Position numbers and translations under genes: made by a program. A stretch of DNA of 64,000 bases from an uncultured delta proteobacterium. GTDB taxonomy: Bacteria; Desulfobacterota; Binatia; UBA9968. A model generated the notes under the pieces. The model saw nothing but the letters and a program-made list of their open reading frames with translations. It ran no database searches and was not told the origin of the DNA. This document shows, one piece after another, positions 17,948 through 40,001 of this stretch; the first letter of the stretch is position 1; each line of letters begins with the position of its first letter. Where the stretch lies: contig CAVSHR010000009.1 of NCBI GenBank assembly GCA_963727625.1, positions 256,001 through 320,000 on the forward strand, in the 5' to 3' direction.

Positions 17948-18595
17948 ATGGAAAGCCGGGAATTCGCCAAGTCGATCGAGAAGCAAGTCGCCGAATTCTG
18001 CAAAAACCTAGACGCGAAGTTGCCGGCCTATAGCTTTATCCCGCTCACCACCGACGAGAAGCGCATCAAAGTGATGCAGAGCCGCTTGTTCAATGAAATC
18101 CGCGCCGGAGAAATTTTCGGCGGCTGGCTCAAGAGTACGCCCGAGCTCGACGTCAAGAAAACCCTCGCCGAAGCGACCCACGAAGAATACGTCCATGCCG
18201 GCTTTCTCGAAGCAGCGTTGCGCGGCAAAGGCGCCACGCCCTACGACTACCGGCCGCTGCCCGCGCAGATGGCCATGTTCAACTCATTTGAAGGATTGAC
18301 CGACACCGTCGAGCGCATCGCGGCGTTTCCCATGGCGGGCGAGGGCGTCGCCGATTATTTAATAGCCAAAAGTCTAAAGGCCGGCACGGTGCCAAGCTGG
18401 GTCACCGATCCATACAAGCGCATTCATGAAGACGAAGAGGAGCACGGCAACTACCCGTTCGAAATTCTGGTCAAATACGCGACCACCGGAGAGCGACAAG
18501 AGCGCGCCGCCCGCGCCGTCGCAATGAGCCTGGCGCTGCGCCGCGCTTACTTCGACAATCTCGATCGCTGGGTGCTCGAAAACCAAATCTATTAG
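17948..18595 (+). CDS. ferritin-like domain protein (island integration target)
   Basis: FNE, EEYVH, GEG, DEEEH ligands; GGAGG RBS. Confidence 0.78.
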   Translation: MESREFAKSIEKQVAEFCKNLDAKLPAYSFIPLTTDEKRIKVMQSRLFNEIRAGEIFGGWLKSTPELDVKKTLAEATHEEYVHAGFLEAALRGKGATPYDYRPLPAQMAMFNSFEGLTDTVERIAAFPMAGEGVADYLIAKSLKAGTVPSWVTDPYKRIHEDEEEHGNYPFEILVKYATTGERQERAARAVAMSLALRRAYFDNLDRWVLENQIY

Positions 18596-18753
18596 GCGTT
18601 GCACTCGGTTTTATTCGCCCAACGAGCATCTGTTTGTCTGAGTCCTCTGGCTTCGATGTGAATCACCCGCGTGCGGTCGGCCACCGCTCGCCCCAGGCTA
18701 AACTTTTTCTTGCTCAAAAGACCAGGTTTGCGTAGTCTTGAACTTGCAAGTCC

Positions 18754-19743
18754 ATGCCAAGGAACGATCAGATTACGCGTCAATGGCAGCTTCTGCGACA
18801 ACTTGAAGGTTCGCCGGGACGAAGCCTTCAAGAGCTTGTCGACAACATCCCGGACGATTACCCGAAAAACGCCCGCACGGTGCGGCGCGATCTGGAAGCG
18901 CTGGAAGCCGTCGGTTTCCCGCTCGTGACCGAGCGGCGCCACGGCCAAACTCGCTGGCGTCTGATGGAAGGCTTCCGCGATATTCTCGCGCTCGGCTTTT
19001 CCGCCACCGAGCTGATGGCGCTGCTTCTCAGCCGTAATCTCTTGAAGCCGCTCGAAGGCACCGAAATCGCCGCGTCCCTCAACTCCGCGCTCGGTAAAGC
19101 TTCGCTGCGCTGCCGCCACAGGGGCACGAGTATGTTCGGGCGATGGAGCAGATGTTTTCCGTCGGCATCGGTGCACATAAAAGCTATCGCGAGCACCGCC
19201 AAACCATCGATCTCATCTCCCAAGCCATCGACAAACGGTGTACCGCGCAAATGCGCTACTTCTCGGCTTCACGAAACGGCACCGCCCGGCGCGAGGTCGA
19301 TCCCTACTTTCCTCCGGTTCGCGGGCGGCGGCCTATATCTCATCGGCCACTGTCACTTGCGCAAAGAAGTGCGCATGTTCGCCGTCGAACGCATCCGCAC
19401 GATCGCGCTCACCGATCATCCCTATCAAATTCCTCTCGATTTCAAGGTCGACGACTACGTTCAGGACGCGCTCGGCGTCATGCGCAGCGGGCGCCGCATC
19501 GAAGTCGAGCTGCTTTTCTCCAAAAAAGCCGCCGCCTGGGTCAAAGATAAAACTTGGCATCCGAGCCAGCAGGTCAAGCTGCTGAAGGACGGCCGATTGA
19601 AAATGACCTTGAAAGTCGCCGACAACGAAGAGCTGGTTGGCTGGGTTTTGAGCTTTGGCGGCGAGGCGCGCGTTGTCCAACCCGAGGCGCTCCGACAAAA
19701 AGTCAGGGAAGAAGCTAAACATATACTCGGTTCCAAACTGTAG
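18754..19743 (+). CDS. HTH-WYL-WCX transcriptional regulator with two compensating frameshifts
   Basis: RTVRRDLEALE HTH; the middle part is in another frame (MRYFSASRNGTARREVDPY); LYLIGHCHLRKEVRMFAVERI; WVLSFG. Confidence 0.85.
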   Translation: MPRNDQITRQWQLLRQLEGSPGRSLQELVDNIPDDYPKNARTVRRDLEALEAVGFPLVTERRHGQTRWRLMEGFRDILALGFSATELMALLLSRNLLKPLEGTEIAASLNSALGKASLRCRHRGTSMFGRWSRCFPSASVHIKAIASTAKPSISSPKPSTNGVPRKCATSRLHETAPPGARSIPTFLRFAGGGLYLIGHCHLRKEVRMFAVERIRTIALTDHPYQIPLDFKVDDYVQDALGVMRSGRRIEVELLFSKKAAAWVKDKTWHPSQQVKLLKDGRLKMTLKVADNEELVGWVLSFGGEARVVQPEALRQKVREEAKHILGSKL

Positions 19744-19773
19744 TTTGTTTTCGACTCCCGGCCACGGGCGATT

Positions 19774-19789
19774 ACATCAATATTGATGT
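19774..19789. promoter_or_regulatory. TA operator palindrome
   Basis: perfect 16-bp palindrome ACATCAATATTGATGT 9 nt before the toxin start codon. Confidence 0.7.
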
Positions 19790-19798
19790 TGCCGTTGT

Positions 19799-20152
19799 AT
19801 GGAATTCGTAGTAGAGTTTTATGAAACCGAATCAGGCAGTTCCCCGGCGCGGGAGTTCCTGGACGAGTTGAGGCTCAGCGATCCTGACGACTTCGCGGCT
19901 GTCGTCGCGGGCCTGGCGAAGCTGCGTAACAGCCAGTATCACCGCGAGCCGCTTTCTAAAGCGCTGGGCGAGGGGCTTTTTGAGCTGCGCCATGTCGACA
20001 AGCTCAACACCCGTGTGCTGTGGTTTTTTATGAAAGGCAGGCGGATTGTCCTGCTGCACGGCATACGTAACAAGGCACGGGCGATTCCATTGCGCGATCT
20101 CGCAACCACGCGGGAACGGATGCGCGATTGGCGCAAAAGAGCGAAACAGTGA
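19799..20152 (+). CDS. RelE/HigB-like (Gp49 family) toxin
   Basis: VEFYETESG, KALGEGLFELR, RVLWFF, IVLLHG; GTGA overlap with the HTH gene. Confidence 0.85.
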   Translation: MEFVVEFYETESGSSPAREFLDELRLSDPDDFAAVVAGLAKLRNSQYHREPLSKALGEGLFELRHVDKLNTRVLWFFMKGRRIVLLHGIRNKARAIPLRDLATTRERMRDWRKRAKQ

Positions 20153-20913
20153 AAAAGACCAATTTCGACCGGTATCTTGAAAAACAATTGGATAATCCGG
20201 CTTTTGCCGCTCGGTTTAAAACAGCCGGCGAGGCGTGGGACGTGGCGCTGCAGATTGCTGCGTTGCGCGAGCAAGTCGGACTTTCGCAGAAGGACCTCGC
20301 CAAGCAGCTCAAGACTTCGCAACAACAAATCAGCCGACTGGAGTCGCCTAGTTACGAAGGCCACAGCCTGAGCATGCTCCGCCGCGTCGCCGACGCCTTG
20401 CACGCAAAGCTGCACGTCAGCTTCGAACCGGGAAATTCAGACGCCCACATGCAAGTCGCCGATCGCCCGGCCACATATCGGAAAGATCGCAGCGTGCCCG
20501 CGAATACGGCAATAAGGAAACTTGGCAGCATGGAATCTGACGAAGCGAGATTGCCCCGCCGCCGAGACCGTGACCAGACCGTCGGTACCATCACTGGAAC
20601 AAAAATAAATCGAAAATATCTGGCGGAAATCGTGCGGCGAATCCTCACGGTAACCGAGCCGGAGAGAATTATCCTGTTCGGTTCCGCGGCAAGGAGCGAG
20701 ATGGGACCGGACAGCGATCTTGATATTCTGGTGGTTACGGCTTGCGATCATCGCCGCAACACCGCTAGGGAGATTCGGAGCGCGCTCTTCGGTATCGGCA
20801 TACCGATAGACATCATTGTGGCGAAACCGCAAGACCTCGAACGCTACGGCGACGCCATCGGTCTTGTTTATCGTCCTGCGCTCAGGGAGGGAACCGTTCT
20901 TTATGCCGCGTAG
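20149..20913 (+). CDS. HigA-like HTH antitoxin in one ORF with a minimal nucleotidyltransferase (MNT)
   Basis: LSQKDLAKQLKTSQQQISRLE HTH, then ILFGSAAR...DSDLDILV with no stop between. Confidence 0.8.
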   Translation: MKKTNFDRYLEKQLDNPAFAARFKTAGEAWDVALQIAALREQVGLSQKDLAKQLKTSQQQISRLESPSYEGHSLSMLRRVADALHAKLHVSFEPGNSDAHMQVADRPATYRKDRSVPANTAIRKLGSMESDEARLPRRRDRDQTVGTITGTKINRKYLAEIVRRILTVTEPERIILFGSAARSEMGPDSDLDILVVTACDHRRNTAREIRSALFGIGIPIDIIVAKPQDLERYGDAIGLVYRPALREGTVLYAA

Positions 20914-21325
20914 GATCGGCTTTATCGGGAAGCCAGAAGATTGGCTGCGCCGGGCCAAAGGCAATCTCGCAAGGGCGAAGCAAACAAAACCCAAAGACGC
21001 TTTCTGGGAAGATCTTTGTTTCGATGCGCAACAAGCAGCAGAAAAGTCCATCAAGGCGGTCTTGGTTTTCCGTCGGCTCGAGATTCGCAAATCCCATGAC
21101 CTCAGAGGGTTGTTGAGCTTGCTTGAAACCGCCGGCTATCCAGTACCCGAGGAGATACGAAAAGCAGATGATCTCACCGACTACGCCGTCGAGACCCGTT
21201 ATCCCGGGTTAACCGAGCCCGTTGGCCCGACCGAATACCGCGATGCCGTTCGGCTGGCGGAAGCCGTGGTGCGTTGGGCCGAAGAACAAATCGGAGTGCG
21301 AAAGAAAAGTAAAAGGAAGACCTAG
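20903..21325 (+). CDS. HEPN domain protein
   Basis: FDAQQAAEKSIKA, KSHDL, YAVETRYP; overlaps the MNT stop. Confidence 0.88.
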   Translation: MPRRIGFIGKPEDWLRRAKGNLARAKQTKPKDAFWEDLCFDAQQAAEKSIKAVLVFRRLEIRKSHDLRGLLSLLETAGYPVPEEIRKADDLTDYAVETRYPGLTEPVGPTEYRDAVRLAEAVVRWAEEQIGVRKKSKRKT

Positions 21326-21384
21326 GCGCGCTCGCATCCGGTTTGTCTTCGAGCTGGGGGCAAGTCGCCGTACGAAACGCAGTG

Positions 21385-21687: not shown

Positions 21688-21758
21688 GCCAGTGAAAGAC
21701 ACACCGCCGGCAATCGAACGAAAATTTCGCCAGATGCTGCCAAAAAGTGGCAAACGGC

Positions 21759-21810: not shown

Positions 21811-21831
21811 GCCCGGAGGGCGGAAGAGACC

Positions 21832-21924: not shown

Positions 21925-22521
21925 ATGCCGTACGTGGATTTGGCGTTTAGGTTGACCGGCAGCAAGGTGCCTGTGGATCACGGATATGCCCTCTATTCGG
22001 CGATCAGCCGGATTTTGCCGGAGATTCACGGCGCGAAGAGTATTGGCGTGCATCCCATCCGGGGCACGTATTCCGGGAACGGCGAACTGATGCTCCGAGA
22101 TTCATCGCGATTAATCATAAGGCTCGAAAGTGAACACATCGGAGAAGTTCTGAAACTCGCCGGCAAACGATTGGATATAGACAGCCACAGCCTCCGGGTC
22201 GGTATACCTGAGGTCCGTCTTCTTCGCGCACGTGCTTCACTATACTCGCGCCTCGTCACAATCAAAGGCTTTATGGACCCTGCAGCGTTTCTGGAATCAG
22301 CCAAGAGACAGTTGGAGAAGCTTGGCGTCGACGCAGAAATTCAGGTTGGTGAACGGCGAACTTTCCGGCTCAAGGATAAGCAGGTGGTCGGATTTGAAGT
22401 CGCGGCCTCGGAAGTAGACGCTGCCGGATCTTTACGATTGCAGGAGAATGGACTCGGCGGCCGAAGGCATATGGGTTGTGGGATTTTTACGGGATCTGCT
22501 GTGCAAAGGTCAGCGGGATGA
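21925..22521 (+). CDS. cas6: Cas6 (Myxan/Cmx6 type)
   Basis: VDLAFRLTG, VDHGYALYSAI, G-rich loop GLGGRRHMGCGIF. Confidence 0.92.
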   Translation: MPYVDLAFRLTGSKVPVDHGYALYSAISRILPEIHGAKSIGVHPIRGTYSGNGELMLRDSSRLIIRLESEHIGEVLKLAGKRLDIDSHSLRVGIPEVRLLRARASLYSRLVTIKGFMDPAAFLESAKRQLEKLGVDAEIQVGERRTFRLKDKQVVGFEVAASEVDAAGSLRLQENGLGGRRHMGCGIFTGSAVQRSAG

Positions 22522-24751
22522 GCGGCTATCCGAGACTCTTAGCCAAGAGCAGTAAAGCACCAAACTCCCCGCTTGGGCTAGAAACGCTGCCTGGTCATAC
22601 AGCCAATGTTCTTGCTGCAGCGGAAGCGCTGCTGGACGAAACCGGTGACTCCCAATTGGCTGCTGTTCGATTAGCTCCAGAAATCTGGCGGCAAGATTTC
22701 CGTCGCAGCGTACTAGCGGCAGCATTTTGCCACGACCTAGGCAAGGCGAACGACCAATTTCAAGCAATGGTCCGTCATCAGCGTGAGGGGAAACAGGCCG
22801 TTCGCCATGAAGCGTTGTCGCTATTAATTATTGAGGAGACCATTCTACGGAATTGGCTTGTGGCGGGTCTGAAGGATGCAGAGGATCTAAAATTTCTTCT
22901 ATGGGCAGCAGCCGGTCATCATCGGAAATTTCCACCTAGCAAACCTGACCAGGGAACCGGCGTGCGACTTTCTCTTTTCCTCGGACATCCCGATTTTCAC
23001 CGTACACTATTGGTCGGTGCCAAGTGGCTCGGCTTGGATGATCCACCGCGACTCGACGATCAAAAGTGGCAACTCACCGGAGCAAACTCCCCCACCACGC
23101 GATTGAGCCGCTTCTGGATCCGTGCTGCTGAATATTGGAGTACCTGTGTGGACGAACGGCGTCGGTTTCTCGCAGCCATGAAAGCATGTGTCATTGCTGC
23201 TGACATCGCTGGCTCAGCGTTGCCGAAACAGAAAAAGAAAATTGCCGTTCGACTCGCGAAGCTCGAATCGTCGACCAACGGCTGACCAACTTCAGAAGAT
23301 TGTTGATGACCGATTACAGGGATTATCTCCCGCGTCCTTTTCAAAATGCCTTGGCAGGAACCAGGGAGCGAGTCGTCCTTGCTCAGGCAGGGTGCGGAAC
23401 TGTCCGGAAAAACCTAGGGGCAATCTGTTGGGCTGCACGGCGCACACCGGGAAGACGACTGTTTTCGCATATCCGACGACTGGCACCGCAACTGAAGGTT
23501 TTCGCGATTATCTTGTTGATCCCACTCTTGACGCTCAGTTAGTCCACGGCCGCGCAGCTGTGATCTCGACTTGCTCGGCGTAGGAGTCGATGATGGTGAA
23601 AATCAGGACCCTCTTGCAGCTCTTGATGCGTGGTCAACTCTTATTACCAGTTGCTCGGTGGATACTGTGCTTCGCCTGACCCAGAATCACCGCCGGGGTC
23701 TCTACGCTTGGCCCGCTTTGGCAAATTCCGCGTTTGTTTTTGATGAGATTCATGCTTACGACGATCGCCTGTTTGACGCGCTGCTGCGGTTTTTGACCAG
23801 CTGTCGTGGTTTGCCTTGTCTTCTTATGACTGCGAGTCTCCCCCAAGCGCGGCGTGCGGCTCTTGAGGACGCTCTACGCGGACTAGGCGAATCGCTGGAA
23901 AGCGTGAGTGGCCCAAGCGATTTAGAAAACCTACCTCGTTACCAGCGCTTACTAAATGATAATCCCTGGTCGGTGGTCGAGCAACGCTTAGAGACAACGG
24001 AAAAGTACTTTGGGTGGTGAACACCGTCGACCGTGCATTCAATTTAGCCAATCAAGCTGAGGCCCGAAGCATTGAACCACTCGTGTACCACAGCCGGTTC
24101 CGTTACGAAGACCGCGTGCGGCAACATGGACGGCTTATTGCGGCGTTTCGAACAAATCTGCCAGTGTTGGCTATAACTACGCAAGTGGCCGAGATGCGTG
24201 CTGAGATCTTTCAGCCGATCTTTTGGTGACCGACTTAGCGCCGATCGCGGCCCTTATTCAAAGGCTTGGGCGATTAAACCGCAGGTCGACCCCAGTGAAT
24301 CGCATTCCTCCAAAGCCTTTTCTTCATCTAGAACCAGATACCGAGGCTCCCTCTAGGACTCAAGATCATCCAGACCCTTTTGCTGCAGGGACCCGAGTAT
24401 GGCTGGAAAATTTCGGTGCGGTGCCAGTCTCACAAGCTGACCTGGCGCGAACCTGGATCCATCTGGACGAGAATGCTATACCGCAATTCTTTGAAAGCGC
24501 CTGGTTGGATGGCGGCTTCAAACGACGCCCCGCCATTTGCGGGAAAGTCTTCCTGGCTTGACCGTCTTGCTCGAGGAAGATGCCGATGGCGTCGCACGTG
24601 GCGAAGTGGATCCCGCACGCGTCCGTATTCCCCATGAACCCACCACGCAACAGGGCGTGGAACAAATGGCGGGAGGTGGCTTTTGCTCGCGTTCCTCCGA
24701 TCAGAGTACATCAGGTACGATTCAGAACGAGGTGCTCAATGGCGTCATTGA
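22518..24751 (+). pseudogene. cas3: Cas3 HD nuclease-helicase, multiply frameshifted
   Basis: HDLGKAN, GHH, YPTTGTATEGF, FDEIH, LMTAS, YHSRF, TTQVAEM, IQRLGRLNR spread over several frames. Confidence 0.88.
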
Positions 24752-26349
24752 CGTGCGACCTCTTTGCCCCGGGCATGACTCAGGCTCCATCGAGCTGGTC
24801 TTGCAGGCTTGGCTAGCACGCTGCGGTGGGTTGAGAAGAAGGTCCCCAAAGGAGAGCGTCCGGGCGGGCGGTTCGGTCGGACAATTGACGAACACTCGGT
24901 GACATTGAGTTGGGAGGAGAATGACGGGAAACGGTTACTCTTCGAGCGACTTTTTGCCTTAACCTACCAACTCAAAAATGATCTTATCTATCTAGCTGGC
25001 CAGTACACGGAACTCCCCCCGCCGTTAGAAGTGCGGGCCGCGCTCCAGGAAGGACTTCTACTAAGTTTTTATGACCACGGAGTTCAATCCCGTGGAAAAA
25101 AAAGGAGGCGCGCGAGTTCGTACATACGAAATCGATGACAAGGCAGTTACATACCGATACCTTCCTCTCTCCTGGTATAAACACCAGCGAGATGGTTCAA
25201 ATTTTTGTTGCAAGCTATCGGAGGGAGTGCTGCAAATAACTCGAACGCTTTTTCCAGGGGCAACAGAAAGGTCCTGCCGGACTACCGGCACCCATGTGAT
25301 TCGCGCAGCCCAACCTGCTCTGCCACTATTTTTCGCACCTGTCGGAACCGTTGCCTTTAGGGCTGGCGGGAAACGTGTGAATCGATCGGGGAAAGCGTAA
25401 TTCGAAAGCCGGTGCCGCATTGTTACATCCCAGATGTGCGAAATCTTTTAAGCGCACAGTATATCCTTCCAGCACTACTACCGAGGAATGTGGTCAGAGA
25501 CTGCCAGGTTACTAACATTGCAGGAGTGCTGCTGCCCTACAGGCGGAACTGCGATTGCGTAGTCGCGATGTTGCTTCAATCGCGACGTGATCCCTGCTAT
25601 TCGTTGTGTGTGGTGTTGTCCTGCCGACTGGAATTACAGGCTCCAGCCGCCATCGTTTGTCACTGAGGTTAATTCGACGCAGTTGATCCGAAACTAGACC
25701 AGTTGACCTTGGCGATGCATGCCTTGGCTGGGCAGATATTACCGAGAAAAAACGAGAAGACGGGAGAATATTTCTGGCCCAGAAGTTATGTGCGTCCGCT
25801 CGTGGCCGACAACCTTGCGTCAATCGCCCCTGGTACGAAGGTTTAATCGTTTGATGACGAATCAAGATCCGCTTACGGAACCATCCAATTCGCAACTACT
25901 TACATTTCGAAAGGAAAGGACTGCACATCATGACCGAAGAAATCCGATGGGGTCATCCCGGAGAGGAATCGATCGTTCGCGCTGTCCACGAAGCTCTTCG
26001 ATGCCGCTATGGTCGCATAGCTTCCGAGAACTCAAAAAATCCTGCCGCGATGAAAAAACGTATGGCACGCGAATATGAACGCCTTCGACTAGCATTTGCC
26101 GGTTCTAAAACGGTCGACACCCTGCGACACGCTCTTACCGATCTCTGGAGCAGAGGCGGTTCCAACAATGTTTTGAAAGAGTTATGGCCCCAAGTCTTGC
26201 CAATGCTCGCGAGCAATAAATGGCAGCTGACTCGCGATTTGGCGCTGTTGGCTCTCGCGAGCTACCAGGCAAAGGAGAAGAAGAGATTGATCTCATCAAC
26301 ATTGATGATGAACCAAAAGGAACAGAAGAAACGGAGGAACAGGTATCGA
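24739..26349 (+). pseudogene. cas8: Cas8 (Cmx8, type I-B Myxan), frameshifted
   Basis: start MASLTCDLFAPGMT; C-terminal ERLRLAFAGSKT...[15 protein letters not shown]; position between cas3 and cas7. Confidence 0.8.
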
Positions 26350-27925: not shown

Positions 27926-27937
27926 TTCCCAAGGACA

Positions 27938-29578: not shown

Positions 29579-29581
29579 AGT

Positions 29582-30130: not shown

Positions 30131-31842
30131 GTGAAGGAATCTGTGATGCCGAAAGGCGTTGAGCACATGGCAGCATCGCGACGGATGGTGATCGACTCGT
30201 CGGGTGAAGGAATCTGTGATGCCGAAAGGCGTTGAGCACGCAGACCTCGATGATCGCGGTGATCCGCTCAGCGTGAAGGAATCTGTGATGCCGAAAGGCG
30301 TTGAGCACTACGAGTACTGATCCGTATCGTCGATGCGGTCCGTGGTGAAGGAATCTGTGATGCCGAAAGGCGTTGAGCACATCTAGGCAGTCGCTGATCA
30401 CACGAGCTTGCCGTGCAGCGTGAAGGAATCTGTGATGCCGAAAGGCGTTGAGCACTGCTGCCGTCGCTCAACGATCTCGCACCACCGAGGTGAAGGAATC
30501 TGTGATGCCGAAAGGCGTTGAGCACTAACCGCTGCAATCGCATCCAGACGCTGATCGCAACGTGTGAAGGAATCTGTGATGCCGAAAGGCGTTGAGCACT
30601 AGCCGCATGCGCGAGCGTCTGGCAGTCGAGGCACTGTCGTGAAGGAATCTGTGATGCCGAAAGGCGTTGAGCACAGACTCGCAGACGCAAGTCATCTGTG
30701 CACGCTATGACCAGTGTGAAGGAATCTGTGATGCCGAAAGGCGTTGAGCACGCGATCGAAGCCGATACTGCACGATGGCTAGCGGACCGTGAAGAATCTG
30801 TGATGCCGAAAGGCGTTGAGCACAAGCAGCGATTCGAGTCTGACGCAGCTCGCAACGGTGAAGGAATCTGTGATGCCGAAAGGCGTTGAGCACCATCGCA
30901 ATCGACATCGACGCCGTGCAGCTGACGTCGTGAAGGAATCTGTGATGCCGAAAGGCGTTGAGCACCGTCAAGGCGCGCTGACGTTGATCGAGCTGCACGA
31001 TCGTGAAGGAATCTGTGATGCCGAAAGGCGTTGAGCACAGTCTGAACGCCAGCTGACATGGCGACCGACGACTGTGAAGGAATCTGTGATGCCGAAAGGC
31101 GTTGAGCACAAGACGAATGCGGCAGACATCGAGACTGCAGTCCAGAGTGAAGAATCTGTGATGCCGAAAGGCGTTGAGCACGTCGTCGCTCGACCGGTCA
31201 CCGTGCAAATCGTCGTGTGAAGGAATCTGTGATGCCGAAAGGCGTTGAGCACCATCGCGGACACGGCTGACTTGACCGTCTGGCAGCGTGTGAAGGAATC
31301 TGTGATGCCGAAAGGCGTTGAGCACCACGACCGTGATGAGCCGAGACTATCGGCAGTCAAAGTGTGAAGGAATCTGTGATGCCGAAAGGCGTTGAGCACA
31401 CCGGCAGCGATCAGACAGCGATCGACGCGATGCAGCTGTGAAGGAATCTGTGATGCCGAAAGGCGTTGAGCACCAGTCATGATCTGCGAATGCCGATTGC
31501 GACGCTGTCCGGTGAAGGAATCTGTGATGCCGAAAGGCGTTGAGCACTGATGTCGCAGGTCAGTCGACGTCGATCGCCGAGTCGTGTGAAGGAATCTGTG
31601 ATGCCGAAAGGCGTTGAGCACATACGATGTGCATTACCGGCGACTTGATGGTGCTCGCGTGTGAAGGAATCTGTGATGCCGAAAGGCGTTGAGCACACGG
31701 CAAGTCTGCAGTCGATGCAGGCGACCGTGCGATCGGTGAAGGAATCTGTGATGCCGAAAGGCGTTGAGCACCTTCAGTACGACGTCATGTCCATCGACGA
31801 TTCGCTGTGAAGGAATCTGTGATGCCGAAAGGCGTTGAGCAC
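30131..31842 (+). CRISPR. CRISPR array, 24 repeats and 23 spacers (33-41 bp)
   Basis: 36-bp repeat GTGAAGGAATCTGTGATGCCGAAAGGCGTTGAGCAC; repeats 10 and 15 lack one G; internal hairpin GCC-GAAA-GGC. Confidence 0.99.
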
Positions 31843-31860
31843 TATATCAATGCAACCGAT

Positions 31861-32858
31861 GGGGTCAGACTTCTACGACTCAACTATCTTGCTCAGCCGG
31901 TCGACCTCCCGCCTGACCGTATCATCTGCTTGCAACCGATCGCTCAGCCGTGCGAGCAAGGTCGCGAGTGTCGCTATGTCTCTATTGAAATAGGCCGCCA
32001 CATCGCTTAACCGGTAACCGAGCCTTCGAACCAATACGTACGCCGCTATCGTGCGCGCTTTCGATATCGTCCAACCCCGATCCGGACTACGCAGCGCCTG
32101 AACCTCGATTTTCAACTGCTTCCCGAGCTCTCTCGCCATCGTCTCGATGGACCGCCGCGTCGGCCTTTTGCCCGAAAGACGCGCTTCCTTCTTCAGCAAC
32201 CTTTCGCCGAACCCCTCGGGGCCGAGAAACCTCTGATCCTCCACCGCATAGTATTTTTCCTTGTGCCCTTGGCTCAAACCGTCTTGAACAAACCTGCGAT
32301 AGGCCTGTTTCCCTCCCAACATCGATAAAACGGGCGCCGGATCGATCATTTCCGTAGCCTTCCCCTGTAGATACGCGTGATCCCCTGAGTAACGATAGCG
32401 CTCCGGACTCCTGACCATGCCGGCGCGCACCGGGTTGAGATGAATATAACGGATCAGCTGAAGCAGATACTCGTCTTTCTGGCAAAGGATCGCCTTGTAG
32501 CGCCCTTCAAATACGTGTCCGGTCTTACGGTGTTTAAGATTGAAATATTGGCTGTAGGATTGTTGCAGCCCTTGCATGAGTTTGGCGAGAGGGTGATGGG
32601 AACTCTCCACCAGCAAATGAACGTGATTGGGCATCAAACAGTAGGCGTGCAACTTGTAGTCGTATTTCTTGCGATAGCGCGCCAGTCGTTCGGTATAGGC
32701 CTGATAATCGCCGTCGGAGGTGAAAATCTTCTGCCGCTGGTTGCCGCGCACAATCACGTGATAGAGAACCCCTGCGGCAAATACTCTCGGCCGGCGCGCC
32801 ATGACGTGCTTCCATATCAAGGCGAATCAAGATAGTCAACTCGTAGAAGTCTGACCCC
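31861..32858 (-). mobile_element. 998-bp RAYT/Y1 transposase unit, copy 1, with 31-bp terminal inverted repeats
   Basis: left GGGGTCAGACTTCTACGACTCAACTATCTTG vs reverse complement of right end GGGGTCAGACTTCTACGAGTTGACTATCTTG (27/31). Confidence 0.85.
31873..32802 (-). CDS. REP-associated tyrosine (HUH/Y1) transposase with DnaA-C-like HTH tail
   Basis: YHVIVRGN, AYCLMPNHVHLL, GHVFEGRY, YIHLNPVRAG; C-terminal AR..AAY...LSDVAAYFNRD. Confidence 0.9.
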   Translation of the reverse strand: MARRPRVFAAGVLYHVIVRGNQRQKIFTSDGDYQAYTERLARYRKKYDYKLHAYCLMPNHVHLLVESSHHPLAKLMQGLQQSYSQYFNLKHRKTGHVFEGRYKAILCQKDEYLLQLIRYIHLNPVRAGMVRSPERYRYSGDHAYLQGKATEMIDPAPVLSMLGGKQAYRRFVQDGLSQGHKEKYYAVEDQRFLGPEGFGERLLKKEARLSGKRPTRRSIETMARELGKQLKIEVQALRSPDRGWTISKARTIAAYVLVRRLGYRLSDVAAYFNRDIATLATLLARLSDRLQADDTVRREVDRLSKIVES

Positions 32859-32906
32859 AAAGACTGCACCCAACCCCCGCTTCGTGGACCCTCTCGATAG
32901 GATCCC

Positions 32907-33938
32907 CTAATGATGATGACCGTATGTGGATTTGACAACGTCTTTGAGGTCCTTGGGCGCATCCAGAGCGTCTTTTACGAGCTCGGTCGCGTCATCACCC
33001 GAAAGGTACTGGATCGGTCGCTTGGCTTTCTTCGCGTGTGCAATCAGCGCAGGATCCTGCATGGCTTCGCTGAAGGCTTCCCTCAGAAAAGCAAGGCGGT
33101 CGGCCGGCATATCCGGCGGTGCCGCTACGGAGCGGCCGGTCGCTCGGAAGGAGGCAAGCGCTTTCAAAATACGAAACTGATGAGGAGTCAGTTCGTTTTG
33201 GATATCCGTGAGATCAGGGGTATCCGGAAACAACTTGTCTCTTCCCATCCCGATAGCGAGCAGCGCTCTCGCCGTGGCCGGCTGGATGTAAGGCAAAGAA
33301 GAATCCGTCGAGTGGACAGTCGCGTCAACTTCCCCCCGCGCCATTGCCGTGAAGAGCTCCGGAGTTGAATCAAACTGCGTTATGATGCGTAACTTTTTCT
33401 TCAGGGTCCCTTCGGCAATCTTGGCAAACATATAATCGCTGCCGCCGACGCCATTCGTGCCGAAGACAAGCGTTTTTTTCCACTTCAAAAAATCTTTTGG
33501 GGTCTGAATTTGCTTGAATGATGACCGGACCGACAGGAGGTCGGTCGATCCCGTAATGCGCCCGAGCCAGGAGAATTTGGTCACGTCGAACCTGACGCCC
33601 TGCTGCCCGGCGATTTGCGATGCAATAATCCCTGCCGTATTCATGATTCCGACCGTCAGGCCATTCGCATCGGCGGTGAATAAAGCATTGGTCCCGACAA
33701 GGCTACCGGCGCCGGGTTTATTGATGACGATAACCGTCGCGCCAAGATGTTTGGCAAAAAAGGGCGCGATAATCCGCGAGTAAATATCGTAGCCGCCGGC
33801 CCCATAGGGAACTATCCAGCTAACCGTCTTGCCCTTAAAATACGCTGCAGCCTCGTCATTGGCTGCGCTGGCCTGGCCGGCACTAAGCCCGAATACGAAC
33901 AATGCCAGAACCGTAATAAAGCTCAACTTCCTTAGCAT
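32907..33938 (-). CDS. tripartite tricarboxylate transporter substrate-binding protein (TctC/Bug family)
   Basis: signal peptide, FKGKTVSWIVPYGAGGYDIYSR, NKPGAGSL, AAPP. Confidence 0.88.
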   Translation of the reverse strand: MLRKLSFITVLALFVFGLSAGQASAANDEAAAYFKGKTVSWIVPYGAGGYDIYSRIIAPFFAKHLGATVIVINKPGAGSLVGTNALFTADANGLTVGIMNTAGIIASQIAGQQGVRFDVTKFSWLGRITGSTDLLSVRSSFKQIQTPKDFLKWKKTLVFGTNGVGGSDYMFAKIAEGTLKKKLRIITQFDSTPELFTAMARGEVDATVHSTDSSLPYIQPATARALLAIGMGRDKLFPDTPDLTDIQNELTPHQFRILKALASFRATGRSVAAPPDMPADRLAFLREAFSEAMQDPALIAHAKKAKRPIQYLSGDDATELVKDALDAPKDLKDVVKSTYGHHH

Positions 33939-34289
33939 CTCTGATACCTCCTCGAACGTAGATAACTGCGGATTCCGTTCCTTGAGGTTGTTAGCCGGCG
34001 AACGAAACACAAACCGTGCTTTGTCGGCCGCCCAAGGGCCGCTTTCACCACAAGACCAGCATCGTGCTCTCGATACGCATGCTACCGAGCCTGGGCCTAT
34101 GCATCAAATTCATCTCACTACCGAACATTATTCGCCCTTCGCGCACTTAAGGTCAAGCGCCAGCTTTTTCGCTGCCCGTTCAACCCTAAATTCTCCCCGG
34201 CGAGGTTACTTGGGGAGGCTGGGAGGCGACCTAGCGGGTCTTCGTCGTTCCGGCCATTGGAACTCTGATTGCGTTTCACGGTATGAATG

Positions 34290-35153
34290 TTAATCCGCAA
34301 GATAAACAGAAATGACACCGACCACCACGGATAGGGTCCCCACGACCATGTGAATGTTGACGCGTTCGAGATGACGCAAAAAAACAGCTCCGATGAGCAG
34401 GGTCCAGATCGGCGACGTCGCAACAATCGGGGAAACATAAACCACCGGACCGGACACAAAGGCGGTTAACATCAGCAAGACCGCGAAAGCCTCGAACAGT
34501 CCCGCTGTGACGAACGGTGCAACGGCCCTGGGATGGAAACGGACGGATTCTCTGGAAAACCCGAGGGATAGATAAGTCGCGAAACAACAAAGCGAGACGG
34601 TCACGACAAAAGCAGCAAAAAACAACGGCTCGGGTGAGACCCGCATGGCGTACCGCCTGATCGGATGAGTTATTCCCGTAAGGAGTGCCGTGCCTAGAGG
34701 GAACAGAAGATACCACCGGCGGAAGGTTGAAGTCGGTTCGCCGGCTTTCCAGGATGTTGCAATTGTACCGGCGACAATGAGAACGGTCCCCACGAGGCTC
34801 TGCGGACTAACGGGTTCGCCCAGGAAGAGTATCCCCATAAAAACGCTGTAGATCGGGTGTGTGGCGCGCAGCGTCACCGCGCGCGACGTGCCGACTTTGT
34901 CGATGCCCGTATAATGACAGAGGCGAACGAAGACCTGGAGGATTCCGGCTAACGCGATCGCCACGATGGCCGCTGATGCCACCTCGGGCACTCCTCGCCC
35001 CAAAACAACGGCCGCCCACAAAACCGAGGCCTGCGTAATCAAGGAGACAAGCGTTGCAACAGCGGGTGTCGAGTACACGAGCCCGCGCCGGACTAAAACA
35101 TTGGCGCCGGCATAGCTAAACGCGGTAAACAAAGCGAGCAGTCTTGGCGACAT
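34290..35153 (-). CDS. EamA/DMT transporter
   Basis: duplicated EamA halves, VSPIVATSPIW, FLRHLERV. Confidence 0.85.
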   Translation of the reverse strand: MSPRLLALFTAFSYAGANVLVRRGLVYSTPAVATLVSLITQASVLWAAVVLGRGVPEVASAAIVAIALAGILQVFVRLCHYTGIDKVGTSRAVTLRATHPIYSVFMGILFLGEPVSPQSLVGTVLIVAGTIATSWKAGEPTSTFRRWYLLFPLGTALLTGITHPIRRYAMRVSPEPLFFAAFVVTVSLCCFATYLSLGFSRESVRFHPRAVAPFVTAGLFEAFAVLLMLTAFVSGPVVYVSPIVATSPIWTLLIGAVFLRHLERVNIHMVVGTLSVVVGVISVYLAD

Positions 35154-35339
35154 CGAATACGAACGGTCCTTTCCCGCTCCAGTCGATCCGGGTGCCTTGA
35201 GACAATCATGCTTGAAATGCGGTTGTTTTCCTTTGATGCAAAGAAAAATAACCGCCAATGGCAAAAGAAGTTTGGCACTTGCGGTGTCGTACTTTTGCTC
35301 GGAGCGCCTGAAAGAGTTTTTCTACCAGATCGGCGGGAA

Positions 35340-36836
35340 TTAACTCGAGGGCGGAGATTCCATCTTTCGACGAACTCCGCGCAAAAGAGGGTAAATAAGG
35401 GTCACGATGATCGATAGGAGGAAAAGCAGAGTCAAAGGTCTCAGAAACATCGACCAGCCATAAAGCGAAATCGAAAGTAAAAGGTTCTTTTCCACAATTC
35501 GACCCAGCACCAGGCCGATGATCAGCGTCGCCCTTGAATAATCATGCTTCTTCAAATAATAGCCGCCGACACCGAAGGCGACGGCGACCAAAAAATCTCC
35601 CAGGTCGTTGTTGGTCGCGTAAGCGCCGAACACGGAGATTACAAAGACGACCGGCACGATCAACTCGCCTCGGATTTTCGTGATGAAAGCCATCCGGCGA
35701 GCCAAGACAAAACCGATGACCGCTCCGATGATATTGGAGGCCACCAGGATCCAGACCATCATAAATACAAGGTCAAGATTTTCCGTGAGCATTTTCGGGC
35801 CGGGCTGCAGTCCTAAAATGTAAAAGGCCCCGAGCAATATGGCCATCGCCTCGCTTCCTGGTATCCCGAAAGCAAGGGTCGGCACCAGAGAGCCTCCTTC
35901 CTTTGCGTTGTTGGCAGACTCCGGGCCTATGACGCCTTCGGGGGCACCCTTTCCGAACTGCGATGGATCCTTGGACGTCTGTACGGCGTGCCCATACGCC
36001 AAGAAATTGGCCACCACTCCGCCCAGGCCCGGAATAATGCCAATGATAGTTCCCATTGCGCTGCAGCGGAGAAACAGCGCCCAGTGGCGAAAGACATCTT
36101 TCATCCCTTCGAAGGGATTCCCTTTGACTTCGAGCCCCTCTTGCGCAATCGAGCCACCGCGGACAGCGAGGTCGATCATTTCGCCAACGGCGAATAATCC
36201 GATCACCGCGGGAACCAGCGGCATTCCGTCCCACAGGTAAAGTTGGCCAAATGTATAACGCAAGGTGCCCGTGGTAAGGTCCTGTCCGACAAAGGAGAGC
36301 ATAAGCCCCAACCCTCCCGTGACGAGCGACTTGAGGACAGCGCCGGACCCGAGGTAGGCGATGAATACGATTCCGAGAACTGCCAGCATGAAAAACTCCG
36401 GTGGCGCGAAGGCAAGCACGAGGGGTTGGAGCACCGGAATCAAGAGAGCCAGGACGACGGCCCCGAATAGACCCCCAAGACCCGAAGCGGTCATGGCAAT
36501 GCCAATAGCCCGGGCACCCTCACCGCGCTGGGCCATCGGGTAACCGTCAAAAACAGTGGCCACGTTGACAGCTGTACCGGGCACGCCGAAAAGGATGCTC
36601 GTCACGGAGCCCCCCGTTGTCGAGACCGCATAGACGCCAAGAAGCAAAGAGAGGGCAAATTCGGGCTTCATGCTAAAGGTAAGCGGCAAAATGAGCGCCA
36701 TGCCAAATATACCGCCGATGCCGGGGATGACACCGAGGATAAAGCCGAAGATGATCCCAATGAGCTGGTAGAGGAAGGCGGGGAAGCTCAGCATTTCGCT
36801 GAGCCCGCTAATAAGAGAAGCAACGATGTGCGCCAT
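35340..36836 (-). CDS. tctA: tripartite tricarboxylate transporter permease TctA
   Basis: ILFGVPGT, DGYPMAQRG, PESANNAKEGGSLVPTLAFGIPGS. Confidence 0.93.
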   Translation of the reverse strand: MAHIVASLISGLSEMLSFPAFLYQLIGIIFGFILGVIPGIGGIFGMALILPLTFSMKPEFALSLLLGVYAVSTTGGSVTSILFGVPGTAVNVATVFDGYPMAQRGEGARAIGIAMTASGLGGLFGAVVLALLIPVLQPLVLAFAPPEFFMLAVLGIVFIAYLGSGAVLKSLVTGGLGLMLSFVGQDLTTGTLRYTFGQLYLWDGMPLVPAVIGLFAVGEMIDLAVRGGSIAQEGLEVKGNPFEGMKDVFRHWALFLRCSAMGTIIGIIPGLGGVVANFLAYGHAVQTSKDPSQFGKGAPEGVIGPESANNAKEGGSLVPTLAFGIPGSEAMAILLGAFYILGLQPGPKMLTENLDLVFMMVWILVASNIIGAVIGFVLARRMAFITKIRGELIVPVVFVISVFGAYATNNDLGDFLVAVAFGVGGYYLKKHDYSRATLIIGLVLGRIVEKNLLLSISLYGWSMFLRPLTLLFLLSIIVTLIYPLLRGVRRKMESPPSS

Positions 36837-36869
36837 ACTCTGGGTTCCGAGATTGGTTGCCGGAGGGCG

Positions 36870-37373
36870 TTACGACCCTAACAGCGATTGCAGCAGCCCG
36901 TTGTAGAGCGGCAGCTTGAAGACGAAGACGAAAACAGTGTAGACGACCGCCCAGGCCCCAGCGGAAAGAAAGATAATTGTCTTCCACGACTGGTGCGCGC
37001 CGAACCAGAGGAAAAGAACGAGGAAAATAGGCACGGCCCAAAGCAGTCCAAACACTAAAATGAACGCGAGAAGGGCGAACAGCCATCCTATAATCCAAAG
37101 TTCTCTCTTCGATTCTACTTTTTTTTCCTCAACCGTGAGCTCGGTCTCGCGCCGAATGCCTTCCATGCTCTGCCCCCGGGCCGCACGGCCAGCCCTGCGG
37201 GAGATAAACTCTGTCACGAACACGATCAAGCTCAGGACAAAAGTAGGAATTCCTACGATCAGAGGGAGACGTCGTGCGGCCGCATCGAAGCTAAACCCGT
37301 CGTAGACGGCATAGCCGAGGATCAAAAAGAGGGCTAAATCGATGATAGTTTCCTCGGTAATGATCTTACGCAT
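36870..37373 (-). CDS. tctB: TctB family small membrane subunit
   Basis: about five TM helices, between tctC and tctA, VFKLPLYNG. Confidence 0.8.
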   Translation of the reverse strand: MRKIITEETIIDLALFLILGYAVYDGFSFDAAARRLPLIVGIPTFVLSLIVFVTEFISRRAGRAARGQSMEGIRRETELTVEEKKVESKRELWIIGWLFALLAFILVFGLLWAVPIFLVLFLWFGAHQSWKTIIFLSAGAWAVVYTVFVFVFKLPLYNGLLQSLLGS

Positions 37374-37459
37374 CGCGATACCTCTATACTGAGCCCAAGA
37401 ACTCGGTTGGCCGCGGGGGTAATGCCCCACGAGCCACACCCGATAAACGGCTTTCCTGA

Positions 37460-38572
37460 CTACTTATGCGTCGCAAAGCCCTTCTTGAGGATGTCTTTGA
37501 GCTCCTTCGGCGGATTGAGAACTTCCCGGATGTCTCTTTCCGCCTCTTCACCGGATATGTAATCCACAGGCCGATGCGCTTTATTGGCTTTGGCGATGAA
37601 GTCGGGATTGGTCAGCACTTTTTTCAGCGCGCCCCTGAGAAAATTCAGGCGCGACCCTTTCATTCCCGGGGGCGCCATGAGCGGGCGAGCAAGCTCATAA
37701 ATTTTGGAGTATGTTTCCAGCATCTGGTAATTGTCCTTGGAAATCGTGCCTTGGGTGTCTTTGATCGTTGCCACGTCGGGAAAATCTTTGTTTTTCTTTG
37801 TAGTCACGGTGAGCAGGGGACGCTCGTAGCCGTTCTTAATGTCGGTGTACGAAGAGGCGAGCGTGTTGCAATACATACCGGTCTCGTTGCGTCGGAGGGA
37901 AGCTTTCACCTCGACCGAACCGCCAAAGCCGAGAATCATATTAAATTTCGAGTTCAGCGCTTTTTCCAAAACAAGGCCACATACATACGGACCACCGCCC
38001 GCCGAGCCGAATTTGTAGCCTTTTTTGTTGTTCAAAACATCCTTCCATGACTGGATTTCTTTCAACGGCGCGCGAACGATGAGCGTGTTTGGATCGGGGG
38101 TGATCCCGGCGAGCCAGGTCATTTTGGCGAGGTCATAGCGCACGCCCGGTGCTCCCGCGATCTGAAAACCGATCGGCCCCTCTCCAAAGGCGGTTCCAAT
38201 CGTGAGACCATCGGGTTTAGCGACGTACAGATCATTCATGCCGATGAGCGATTGACCGCCCGGTTTATTCAAGACCACGACACTGGCGCCCGTATATTCT
38301 GCTAGATATGGCCCTATCATGCGGGCGTACGTGTCGACTCCGCCACCGGCTTTACTCGGCACGATAAAGGTGATCGTCTTTCCTTTGAAAAACGTCGCGT
38401 CCGAAGAGGCCGCACCGGCCTGATTGCCGGGCCATGAACTCAATACGAAAAGACTCAACGAAATCAGCAATAGTCTCCCAAGACGAAGCGCGGCACGCGC
38501 AGGATGCCTCCTTCGGCGAGATAGAAAAGAAACACTTCGCCCATTGGACTCTGTCGGTGTGCATATTGCCAT
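37460..38572 (-). CDS. second TctC/Bug family substrate-binding protein
   Basis: FFKGKTITFIVPSKAGGGVDTYAR, NKPGG, KPDGLTIG. Confidence 0.88.
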   Translation of the reverse strand: MAICTPTESNGRSVSFLSRRRRHPARAALRLGRLLLISLSLFVLSSWPGNQAGAASSDATFFKGKTITFIVPSKAGGGVDTYARMIGPYLAEYTGASVVVLNKPGGQSLIGMNDLYVAKPDGLTIGTAFGEGPIGFQIAGAPGVRYDLAKMTWLAGITPDPNTLIVRAPLKEIQSWKDVLNNKKGYKFGSAGGGPYVCGLVLEKALNSKFNMILGFGGSVEVKASLRRNETGMYCNTLASSYTDIKNGYERPLLTVTTKKNKDFPDVATIKDTQGTISKDNYQMLETYSKIYELARPLMAPPGMKGSRLNFLRGALKKVLTNPDFIAKANKAHRPVDYISGEEAERDIREVLNPPKELKDILKKGFATHK

Positions 38573-38771
38573 CTTAACCTCCTCGAAAAACATTGACGCG
38601 TCAGCATGGTGTGGTCAACCACGTCAGCTTCCGGATCAAGCTTTTAGCTCTCGGACTTATTTGCATTTATTCATGTGACTGTACTGTCGGATAGTACTAT
38701 GCCTTTTTTTTGTCAAGTGGTCGTCGTTTTTACTTCCACGTGACGATACCACACGGGAGGGGAGCGGATAA

Positions 38772-39769
38772 GGGGTCAGACTTCTACGACTCAACTATCT
38801 TGCTCAGCCGGTCGACCTCCCGCCTGACCGTATCATCTGCTTGCAACCGATCACTCAGCCGTGCGAGCAAGGTCGCGAGTGTCGCTATGTCTCTATTGAA
38901 ATAGGCCGCCACATCGCTTAACCGGTAACCGAGCCTTCGAACCAATACGTACGCCACTATCGTGCGCGCTTTCGATATCGTCCAACCCCGATCCGGACTA
39001 CGCAGCGCCTGAACCTCGATTTTCAACTGCTTCCCGAGCTCTCTCGCCACCGTCTCGATGGACCGCCGCGTCGGCCTTTTGCCCGAAAGACGCGCTTCCT
39101 TCTTCAGCAACCTTTCGCCGAACCCCTCGGGGCCGAGAAACCTCTGATCCTCCACCGCATAGTATTTTTCCTTGTGCCCTTGGCTCAAACCGTCTTGAAC
39201 AAACCTGCGATAGGCCTGTTTCCCTCCCAACATCGATAAAACAGGCGCCGGATCGATCATTTCCGTAGCCTTCCCCTGTAGATACGCGTGATCCCCTGAG
39301 TAACGATAGCGCTCCGGACTCCTTACCATGCCGGCGCGCACCGGGTTGAGATGAATATAACGGATCAGCTGAAGCAGATACTCGTCTTTCTGGCAAAGGA
39401 TCGCCTTGTAGCGCCCTTCAAATACGTGTCCGGTCTTACGGTGTTTAAGATTGAAATATTGGCTGTAGGATTGTTGCAGCCCTTGCATGAGTTTGGCGAG
39501 AGGGTGATGGGAACTCTCCACCAGCAAATGAACGTGATTGGGCATCAAACAGTAGGCGTGCAACTTGTAGTCGTATTTCTTGCGATAGCGCGCCAGTCGT
39601 TCGGTATAGGCCTGATAATCGCCGTCGGAGGTGAAAATCTTCTGCCGCTGGTTGCCGCGCACAATCACGTGATAGAGAACCCCTGCGGCAAATACTCTCG
39701 GCCGGCGCGCCATGACGCATTCCCATATCAAAATCAATCGAGATAGTCAATTTATAAAAGTCTGACCCT
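38772..39769 (-). mobile_element. 998-bp RAYT/Y1 transposase unit, copy 2
   Basis: left TIR identical to copy 1; right TIR more degenerate (GAGATAGTCAATTTATAAAAGTCTGACCCT). Confidence 0.85.
38784..39713 (-). CDS. REP-associated tyrosine transposase, copy 2
   Basis: about five substitutions vs copy 1 by eye (two amino-acid changes). Confidence 0.9.
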   Translation of the reverse strand: MARRPRVFAAGVLYHVIVRGNQRQKIFTSDGDYQAYTERLARYRKKYDYKLHAYCLMPNHVHLLVESSHHPLAKLMQGLQQSYSQYFNLKHRKTGHVFEGRYKAILCQKDEYLLQLIRYIHLNPVRAGMVRSPERYRYSGDHAYLQGKATEMIDPAPVLSMLGGKQAYRRFVQDGLSQGHKEKYYAVEDQRFLGPEGFGERLLKKEARLSGKRPTRRSIETVARELGKQLKIEVQALRSPDRGWTISKARTIVAYVLVRRLGYRLSDVAAYFNRDIATLATLLARLSDRLQADDTVRREVDRLSKIVES

Positions 39770-39779
39770 ATGCGTCCTG

Positions 39780-40001
39780 CTCAAGGCCGGCACCGTTCCG
39801 AGTTGGGTCACCGATCCGTACAAGCGCATCCACGAGGACGAAGAAGAACACGGCAACTACCCCTTCGAGATCCTGGTCCGATACGCGACGACGGAGGACA
39901 AACAAGAGCGCGCCGCCCGCGCCGTCGCAATGAGCCTGGCGCTGCGCCGCGCTTATTTTGACAATCTCGATCGGTGGGTGTTTGAGGGAAGGATACACTA
40001 A
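39780..40001 (+). pseudogene. 3' fragment of a second allele of the ferritin-like gene
   Basis: LKAGTVPSWVTDPYKRIHEDEEEHGNYPFEILVRY...DRWVFEGRIH-stop, colinear with 18374-18595. Confidence 0.9.

Follow-up and report, generated by a model that had tools for sequence, protein, structure and literature searches.

How does a CRISPR-Cas locus, together with toxin-antitoxin and transport genes, come to lie between two copies of the 3' end of one conserved gene when no tyrosine or serine recombinase is encoded with it? The question is raised by a stretch of 64,000 nucleotides (contig CAVSHR010000009.1, positions 256,001 to 320,000; hereafter the window) of a metagenome-assembled genome (MAG) with 6.3% contamination, from an uncultured soil lineage, Candidatus Binatia. 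The conserved gene, here called F, is the anchor of the locus, and in several relatives it is directly followed by polA, the gene for DNA polymerase I. In the window the two genes are 37 kb apart. The explanation to which we give a little better than an even chance is a recombinase-free, homology-anchored insertion of DNA from a related lineage, through a single crossover or a one-sided recombination.

The duplicated tail of F and the absence of a recombinase

F encodes a protein of 224 aa that is ferritin-like by its Atlas neighbours alone (EncFtn-like/ferritin-like), and its family gave no match in Pfam, NCBIfam or PDB sequence searches. Orthologues with 77-86% DNA identity are present in genus genomes and at 80 metagenome loci. 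The comparison sets consisted of 30 other genomes of the genus, the F genes of 95 relatives, 80 metagenome contigs with F and 112 related F loci. The features that mark the two ends of the first cargo are the following:

17921..18595, + strand: F, conserved 224-aa gene, the anchor
18374..18595, + strand: copy A of the 222-bp duplicated tail, within the intact F
18496..18549, + strand: 54-nt tract, exactly equal to 39902-39955
39769..39779, no strand: 11-nt spacer between the end of a TIRtron (a mobile element, treated below) and copy B, not conserved beside other TIRtron copies and unlike F at that place
39780..40001, + strand: copy B, the leftover F tail, codons 152-224 and the stop codon

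Copies A and B align without gaps in the same orientation, with 183 of 222 positions identical and 39 mismatches (BLAST: 87% over 201 nt). The first-pass annotation of this DNA had described the repeat as a diverged allele with many synonymous changes around an identical 54-nt core, and the alignment agrees: 28 of the 39 mismatches fall at third codon positions, while the differing codons comprise 22 synonymous and eight non-synonymous ones. The amino-acid replacements are located where F orthologues vary too, and copy B retains its reading frame and its stop codon. The third-position bias and the kept stop imply that both copies diverged as working alleles, and we regard them as two once-functional alleles of different lineages.

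The 54-nt tract was compared with natural variation of F. In full it occurs in none of the F genes of the 95 relatives (best 52/54, mean 80%), and in 176 pairs of natural F alleles that are 82-92% identical in the same 201-nt stretch the longest identical run is 52 nt (median 23), so that no pair reaches 54. Conservation therefore does not account for the run, and we take it to be a recombination footprint. A core-like match of 45 nt in G012 (L092:19579-19623, 82%, inverted) was judged to be due to chance in G+C-rich sequence. In the same contig (L092, G012:C313), F at 8934-9365 lacks the equivalent of window positions 18220-18412 (193 nt, not a multiple of three); this F is probably a pseudogene, and the break falls in that part of F which also contains the leftover boundaries.

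No 5' part of F that could belong to copy B was found beyond either copy of the TIRtron or elsewhere in the assembly. The idea that a TIRtron insertion had simply cut short a full second F gene, an outcome that the first-pass annotation itself had listed as contrary to its proposal, was rejected on this ground. The locus thus bears a partial anchor duplicate of two diverged functional alleles as well as a recombination tract, as belongs to a homology-anchored insertion.

The absence of a recombinase was assessed with a six-frame profile search of the whole assembly (PF00589, Phage_integrase; PF00239, Resolvase). It gave 17 PF00589 and two PF00239 matches, all of them outside the window, in agreement with the earlier claim that no tyrosine or serine recombinase lies inside the segment. 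Not even an integrase fragment was found in the window down to E = 0.01 in the PF00589 search, and Pfam scans of the larger open reading frames (ORFs) between 18.6 and 55.8 kb revealed no other recombinase. Elsewhere in the genome at least 14 tyrosine recombinase matches exceed the Pfam cut-off. A phmmer search with 11 integrase domains of this genome, of limited sensitivity, detected no tyrosine recombinase beside F in the 112 related loci, its sole match (L057) coming from a genome of another family and lying ~20 kb downstream of F. The integrase check was made with Pfam or phmmer at metagenome contigs and, at the other genome loci, covered tyrosine recombinases alone.

Empty sites, layers and recurring gene-end leftovers

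An empty site, which the first-pass annotation had proposed to look for, is present in relatives. F is followed directly by polA in six genus genomes (G002, G004, G019, G022, G044 and G046), at distances of roughly 80-370 nt as estimated from match coordinates, and in six of the 68 metagenome loci that reach at least 600 nt beyond F (five at 74-314 nt, one with a 1.4-kb insert). The remaining 62 loci show 20 other downstream types, so that the F tail borders a hot spot. In G005, an unpublished genome on which only two minor points are based (its F locus and a homologue of a cargo regulator, given below), polA is on a different contig from the F locus. Another relative (L094, G045:C32:8000-26000) has polA and then F on one strand, the reverse of the order elsewhere, and one of the two genes is, as judged from this order, locally transposed there.

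In the window the order is F, first layer, F tail, middle layer D, head of polA, third layer and polA. The 21.4-kb segment that had been taken for the whole island does have the boundary repeat ascribed to it, but two further layers follow, and the insertion as a whole measures 37 kb. The parts beyond copy B are:

40002..49456, - strand: middle layer D, with a 927-aa protein, an 865-aa PKD/beta-helix protein, a cupin and small ORFs; lowest G+C
49457..49755, + strand: polA leftover, comprising the upstream region and about the first 260 nt of the ORF
49756..55771, - strand: third layer (I2), with a beta-helix gene fragment (49695-50345), small ORFs and a GAF histidine kinase (51523-55485)
55811..58489, + strand: polA (DNA polymerase I), the other conserved flank (NF004397, 989 bits)

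The polA leftover differs from 55772-56070 at 41 of 299 positions, 40 of which lie in the first 138 nt and one in the last 161. It ends exactly at the start of the truncated beta-helix gene, with no mobile-element gene at the joint. The beta-helix fragment shares 74% identity with the beginning of the gene for the 865-aa protein of layer D (44068-46665). The layout agrees with a pair of additive insertions in mirror image, anchored in F and in polA respectively, around what would be an older middle layer.

The same type of leftover recurs with other cargo. At F it was found on two of the 80 metagenome contigs: L104 has a Fic gene and a leftover that begins near F nt 565, and in L164 the cargo is a beta-propeller gene with DUF305 and the leftover begins near nt 400. 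Neither an integrase nor a Y1 (single-tyrosine) transposase gene was detected among the Pfam-scanned cargo ORFs of these two contigs. The leftover starts of the three cases, at about 400, 454 and about 565, speak against a fixed att site.

When the genome was compared with itself, 69 short, diverged direct repeats emerged, 20 of which were flagged by a simple ORF test; eight were examined and six were followed with Pfam and alignment. These six candidates consist of an intact gene, 0.7-4.8 kb of cargo and then a copy of the last 140-260 nt of the gene:

G000, C2:218579-223301: candidate locus
G000, C2:578962-582294: candidate locus
G000, C4:486008-488007: candidate locus
G000, C4:1072222-1078366: candidate locus
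G000, C5:649469-652591: candidate locus
G000, C6:129312-132478: candidate locus, the least clear, since the longer repeat extends past the stop codon

The anchors are a 2-hydroxyacid dehydrogenase, a ketopantoate reductase, two amidohydrolases and two genes of unknown family, and the cargo includes MazF/RHH and ParE/Phd pairs, thioesterase and AMP-binding genes and lipoprotein-like genes. No tyrosine-recombinase (PF00589) match overlaps any of the six loci.

These observations bear on a classical integrative island, similar to a cis-mobilizable element (CIME), in which a tyrosine recombinase would have acted at an att core in the F tail and either been lost afterwards (for example by deletion beside the TIRtron) or been supplied in trans. 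Integration into a protein gene classically leaves direct repeats and a diverged replacement for the gene end, and the tyrosine recombinases elsewhere in the genome are compatible with such an origin. We hold it to be quite unlikely, given that the window has no integrase or remnant at the threshold used, that the 112 related loci gave none beside F within the sensitivity of that search, that the leftovers start at three different F positions, and that the identical tract is located centrally in the duplicate, flanked by diverged homology, and not at its edge.

Recurrence also bears on an assembly artefact, in which two strain haplotypes of the F-polA hot spot would have been joined at the 1-kb TIRtron repeat. 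Contamination of the MAG and the position of the joint beside a 1-kb repeat would suit such an error, and no public contig bridges the place: three soil runs of one study contain 5-8% of the sampled words, but their contigs are short, mostly 100% identical, and none crosses a joint. However, the sequence runs from the element through 11 unique nucleotides into the leftover, element and leftover share no long identical stretch, and the layout is repeated in two independent metagenome contigs as well as at five or six other places in this genome where the joints have no repeats. An artefact is consequently very improbable in our estimation.

The cargo of the first layer and its TIRtron copies

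The first layer contains the following features between the two F tails:

18754..19743, + strand: WYL/WCX regulator with a helix-turn-helix (HTH) domain (PF25583, 5.9e-22; PF13280)
19799..21325, + strand: toxin-antitoxin block with Gp49-like toxin, HTH and nucleotidyltransferase, and HEPN genes (PF05973, PF01381/PF01909, PF05168)
21925..23285, + strand: cas6 (Cmx6) and the cas3 HD domain gene, both open (TIGR02807, 2e-61; PF18019; TIGR01596)
23300..27242, + strand: decayed interference genes, namely cas3 helicase, csx13 and a cas7/DevR fragment (TIGR01587, TIGR03486, TIGR02585)
27245..29884, + strand: cas5 (Cmx5), cas4-cas1 fusion and cas2, all open (TIGR02586; PF01867 and PF01930; PF09827)
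30132..31842, + strand: CRISPR array of 24 repeats of ~36 nt, broken 18 nt into a spacer by TIRtron copy 1
31861..32868, - strand: TIRtron copy 1, 1008 bp, with the TIRYT gene at 31873-32820 and inverted ends GGGGTCAGAC
32907..38593, - strand: transport module TctC, EamA, TctA, TctB, TctC, between the TIRtron copies
38772..39768, - strand: TIRtron copy 2, with the TIRYT gene at 38784-39737

Homologues of the WYL regulator with 81% identity were found in G005:C310 and G012:C307, the latter beside cas6/cas3. In the toxin-antitoxin block, a Gp49-type toxin with its HTH partner is followed by a nucleotidyltransferase/HEPN pair. The gene set is that of type I-MYXAN, with cas6/cmx6, cas5/cmx5, csx13, cas7/devR, cas3, cas4-cas1, cas2 and an array. 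The cas3 helicase is distributed over at least three frames (TIGR01587 positions 96-184, 229-291 and 299-320 in three ORFs), csx13 matches only the C-terminal part of TIGR03486, and cas7/DevR is represented by positions 121-158 of the 321 of TIGR02585. The interference module is, as far as its reading frames tell, decayed by frameshifts. In contrast, the adaptation genes and cas6 have open frames, as do cas5 and all other long genes of the window. The proposal that a whole CRISPR-Cas island had moved consequently stands as regards the presence of cas genes and array, but not as regards an intact interference module. For the Tct module no orthologue was found in the 30 other genus genomes, three of which give weak matches at the level of paralogues, and there is no second copy in this genome.

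The two TIRtron copies are 98.2% identical, and by eye most differences are in the last 55 nt, at the gene-upstream end, where copy 2 resembles a copy on contig C4. The encoded TIRYT protein of 315 aa matches PF01797 (1.4e-17) and NF047646 (87.1 bits, cut-off 80). Its DnaA-C-like HTH is weak (PF08299, E = 1e-5, 25.9 bits against a Pfam cut-off of 31.5), and TIGR00362 matches its C-terminal part (2.2e-7). Both ends of the element begin with GGGGTCAG, with arms of 38-48 nt that are 79-84% complementary, and they fit GGGGWSAS, which is given as the terminal consensus of TIRtrons and their TIRYT genes in the parts of the literature available to us (PMC3733652; subclass 2.1, PMC6006769).

The first-pass annotation had named the element a RAYT. 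GGGGTCAGAC occurs seven times in 6.6 Mb (~19 expected), and the longer end motif is present at three element copies only; the end motif is not dispersed in the genome and the element is thus not REP-associated. RAYTs are reportedly, according to Bertels and colleagues in 2017, typically single-copy and vertically inherited. This genome has two full copies and a truncated one (contig C4), copies with 87-88% identity occur at other loci in G017 (two) and G043, and Binatia and related MAGs yielded 13 matching stretches, among them internally deleted derivatives of ~176 and 360 nt. We thus class the element, from its ends and its distribution, as a mobile, multi-copy TIRtron with a TIRYT transposase and not as a REP-associated RAYT. 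The deleted derivatives L194:85-260 and L205:1062-1427, on Binatia MAG contigs, retain both inverted ends, and the family appears to have MITE-like (miniature inverted-repeat transposable element) members. A repeat in L198 that abuts a TIRtron end was considered as a host-gene leftover and rejected, being the end and 5' part of another TIRYT-type element. TIRYT paralogues (35-57% identical) are arranged in tandem clusters of three or four at G000:C8:235700-245300 and C4:1056000-1070400, an odd distribution for insertion sequences (IS).

Copies 1 and 2, in the same orientation, bracket the 5.9-kb Tct/EamA module (window 31861-39768), and the pair with its module may be a composite transposon of a Y1 element.

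Could the TIRtron have moved the first layer? The first-pass annotation had placed the duplicate 10 nt after the terminal repeat. The gap between the end of copy 2 (39768) and the start of the leftover (39780) was measured at 11 nt, and it falls to 10 only if the last C of the element has mutated to the T at 39769. According to that annotation the Y1 transposase of copy 2 would have joined its own end to the middle of a donor F, producing a circle, made up of the F tail and the cargo from the WYL gene to the TIRtron, that entered by a single crossover, with the element as an ISCR-like mobiliser. The close approach of the gene-upstream end to the truncated start of the leftover is unlikely by chance, and the family is mobile, as its copies here and in other Binatia MAGs and its deleted derivatives indicate. 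However, an alignment of five copies sets the ends at GGGG...CCCC; the flanks of these copies differ, so the 11 nt are outside the TIRtron and the joint is not at a transposase-defined end. No Y1 gene is present at nine or ten comparable joints (the polA leftover, the two metagenome contigs at F and the six genome candidates, of which one is weak and another has a TIRYT paralogue at a distance of 2 kb), and GGGGWSAS is near one of ten other joints, 48 nt off, at about chance expectation. The outer flanks of three other full TIRtron copies are not duplicated locally. The enzyme is a Y1 transposase of the IS200 type and not of the IS91/ISCR rolling-circle type, and those parts of PMC3733652 and PMC6006769 that were available demonstrate no mobilisation of adjacent DNA by a RAYT or TIRYT. 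The RAYT-linked route is for these reasons abandoned here as the main explanation, and we consider a TIRtron acting as mobiliser rather unlikely. The same low expectation applies to the specific version in which the TIRYT of copy 2 would have nicked ~10 nt outside its upstream inverted repeat, giving an end or circle that carried the 21-kb block into F. If such a TIRYT-made end were true, TIRtrons, so far held to be inert or to move only themselves, could mobilise large adjacent cargo in an ISCR-like manner.

The TIRtron might alternatively have served as a portable homology arm. It would first have broken the resident F at about nt 443-454, after which a donor segment (upstream genes, intact F, cargo and TIRtron) would have come in by an ordinary double crossover in place of the damaged 5' part, its two arms being the TIRtron and a stretch in or upstream of F, so that the old F tail was left behind the element. 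This would account for the TIRtron abutting the leftover, two near-identical copies could act as arms, and the terminal 55 nt of copy 2, unlike copy 1 and like the copy on contig C4, are as for a recombinant element. Nevertheless, the 11 nt are unlike the F sequence expected there, the 54-nt identical tract is left unexplained, and the scenario is inapplicable to the polA leftover or the other stumps; we therefore judge it unlikely. Under the homology-anchored insertion favoured here, the TIRtron is a mobile, IS-like passenger, whose end at most supplied the break for an illegitimate joint.

Proposed route and relation to known systems

For the homology-anchored insertion we infer the following route. 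Donor DNA of a related lineage, carrying its own F tail with the downstream WYL gene, toxin-antitoxin genes, I-MYXAN cas genes and array, and Tct module with its TIRtrons, would pair with the resident F and be added by RecA-type homologous recombination. The product would be an intact hybrid F followed by the cargo, with a leftover F tail at its far end. In mirror image, the same process would have brought in the third layer at polA, on the side of its 5' end. For the crossover itself, a single (Campbell-type) event at the 54-nt tract is modestly favoured over a one-sided tail displacement, of the type known as homology-facilitated illegitimate recombination (HFIR), with a conversion patch. 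A single crossover inside the duplicate explains why diverged homology flanks a long identical tract, while the differing lengths of the leftovers are accounted for by a one-sided event whose second joint is illegitimate, for which no circle is needed. Of the earlier proposal, entry by recombination in F without an integrase is supported, whereas the TIRtron-made circle is not.

Several points weigh against this explanation. Transfer of a non-replicating circle between cells is mechanistically awkward, and the donor arrangement was not found, the WYL homologues of G005 and G012 not being beside F in the DNA examined. Phasing of single-nucleotide polymorphisms (SNPs) against the 95 relatives placed copies A and B equidistant from all of them on both sides of the core, and no relative is closer than 88% in the upstream part. 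Relatives this distant do not allow phasing, so that the data show neither that a crossover took place inside the duplicate nor which way the DNA was transferred. The position of a TIRtron end 11 nt from the joint has a chance of ~0.5% by a rough count (four ends, two boundaries, 21 kb) and does not follow from this explanation. Third-position bias is present in three of the six genome candidates and lacking in C4:1072222 and C6:129312, and three of the genome candidates have identical runs no longer than expected by chance. Positions 40002-43000 of layer D have no DNA match in the 30 genus genomes. Finally, the locus is from a contaminated MAG, and no read or contig spans its joints.

The components of the proposed process are known, namely HFIR and displacement, minimal mobile elements, and TIRtrons. 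On HFIR and C-terminal displacement, Kirchberger et al. cite de Vries and Wackernagel (in 2002), Prudhomme and colleagues (also in 2002) and Jackson and colleagues (in 2009). In the portion of the literature at hand, the HFIR route is proposed for orphan modules in effector-immunity loci of the rhs, contact-dependent inhibition (CDI) and type VI secretion system (T6SS) kinds (Kirchberger et al., 2017, PMC5361080). As in that account, a conserved gene stretch serves as the anchor here, new genes come to lie downstream of it, the former 3' part is displaced behind them and no integrase is needed (PMC5361080). Unlike the rhs/CDI/T6SS loci, the anchors in our work are of housekeeping type (F, polA, dehydrogenases, amidohydrolases) and not polymorphic toxins, the displaced tail is a homologous allele and not a different toxin tip, and the cargo reaches 21 kb and includes a CRISPR-Cas locus. 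The identity tract in the middle of the duplicate suggests a reciprocal crossover, which is a further difference from these loci.

Minimal mobile elements of Neisseria are reportedly the subject of work by Saunders and Snyder in 2002. They share with our locus variable genes between two conserved flanks, homologous exchange and the lack of mobility genes of their own, as far as the available part of PMC3787668 describes them. They are exchanged by double-crossover replacement and leave no partial duplicates, whereas the insertions described here are additive and leave gene ends behind.

Other parallels are provided by integrating elements. The prophage e14 and phage 21 integrate into icd and bring a substitute gene end, and CIMEs are also known. 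Like the icd cases, the intact F would be partly incoming, with a displaced, diverged original end and many synonymous differences; unlike them and unlike CIMEs, our locus has no integrase, variable leftover boundaries and homology on both sides of the identical tract. ISCR/IS91 elements of the HUH class mobilise adjacent DNA, and they share with the TIRtron an HUH-type enzyme and the idea of a circle integrating by homologous recombination. In contrast to them, the enzyme here is a single-tyrosine, IS200-like one, the joint is off the element end and there is no recurrence. The TIRtron itself resembles those of the consulted parts of Di Nocera et al. (2013; PMC3733652) and of Quentin et al. 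(2018; TnpA-Y1 subclass 2.1, PMC6006769) in its Y1 HUH protein of ~315 aa with a putative C-terminal DnaA-like HTH, in inverted repeats whose starting GGGGTCAG fits GGGGWSAS, and in having no dispersed REP family. It differs from described TIRtrons in that the whole 1008-bp unit moves, deleted derivatives exist and two copies bracket a 5.9-kb transport module.

What distinguishes the present case is the use of this process at ordinary genes, its stacking into a 37-kb, three-layer insert and its frequency in one genome; a non-exhaustive literature search, which did not cover supplements, found no description of the pattern for housekeeping genes. If true, the locus would be a clear natural case of accessory gene gain without a mobility enzyme, in which the tail or head of a resident gene serves as handle and the gained genes span defence, toxin-antitoxin pairs, transporters and a CRISPR locus. 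Additive events would then be able to stack, here in three layers and 37 kb between genes that adjoin in relatives, and to occur at many loci of one lineage. Hot-spot studies usually infer recombinase-free gene gain only indirectly, and gene-end leftovers, which are easy to detect, could mark it genome-wide. A caution also follows, in that a Y1 transposon near the edge of an island is no evidence of its moving the island.

Upstream of F, the window contains at 9605-13638 two adjacent paralogues of ~650 aa (67% DNA identity), and the stretch with these genes is missing between a 7.4-kb gene and F in several relatives.

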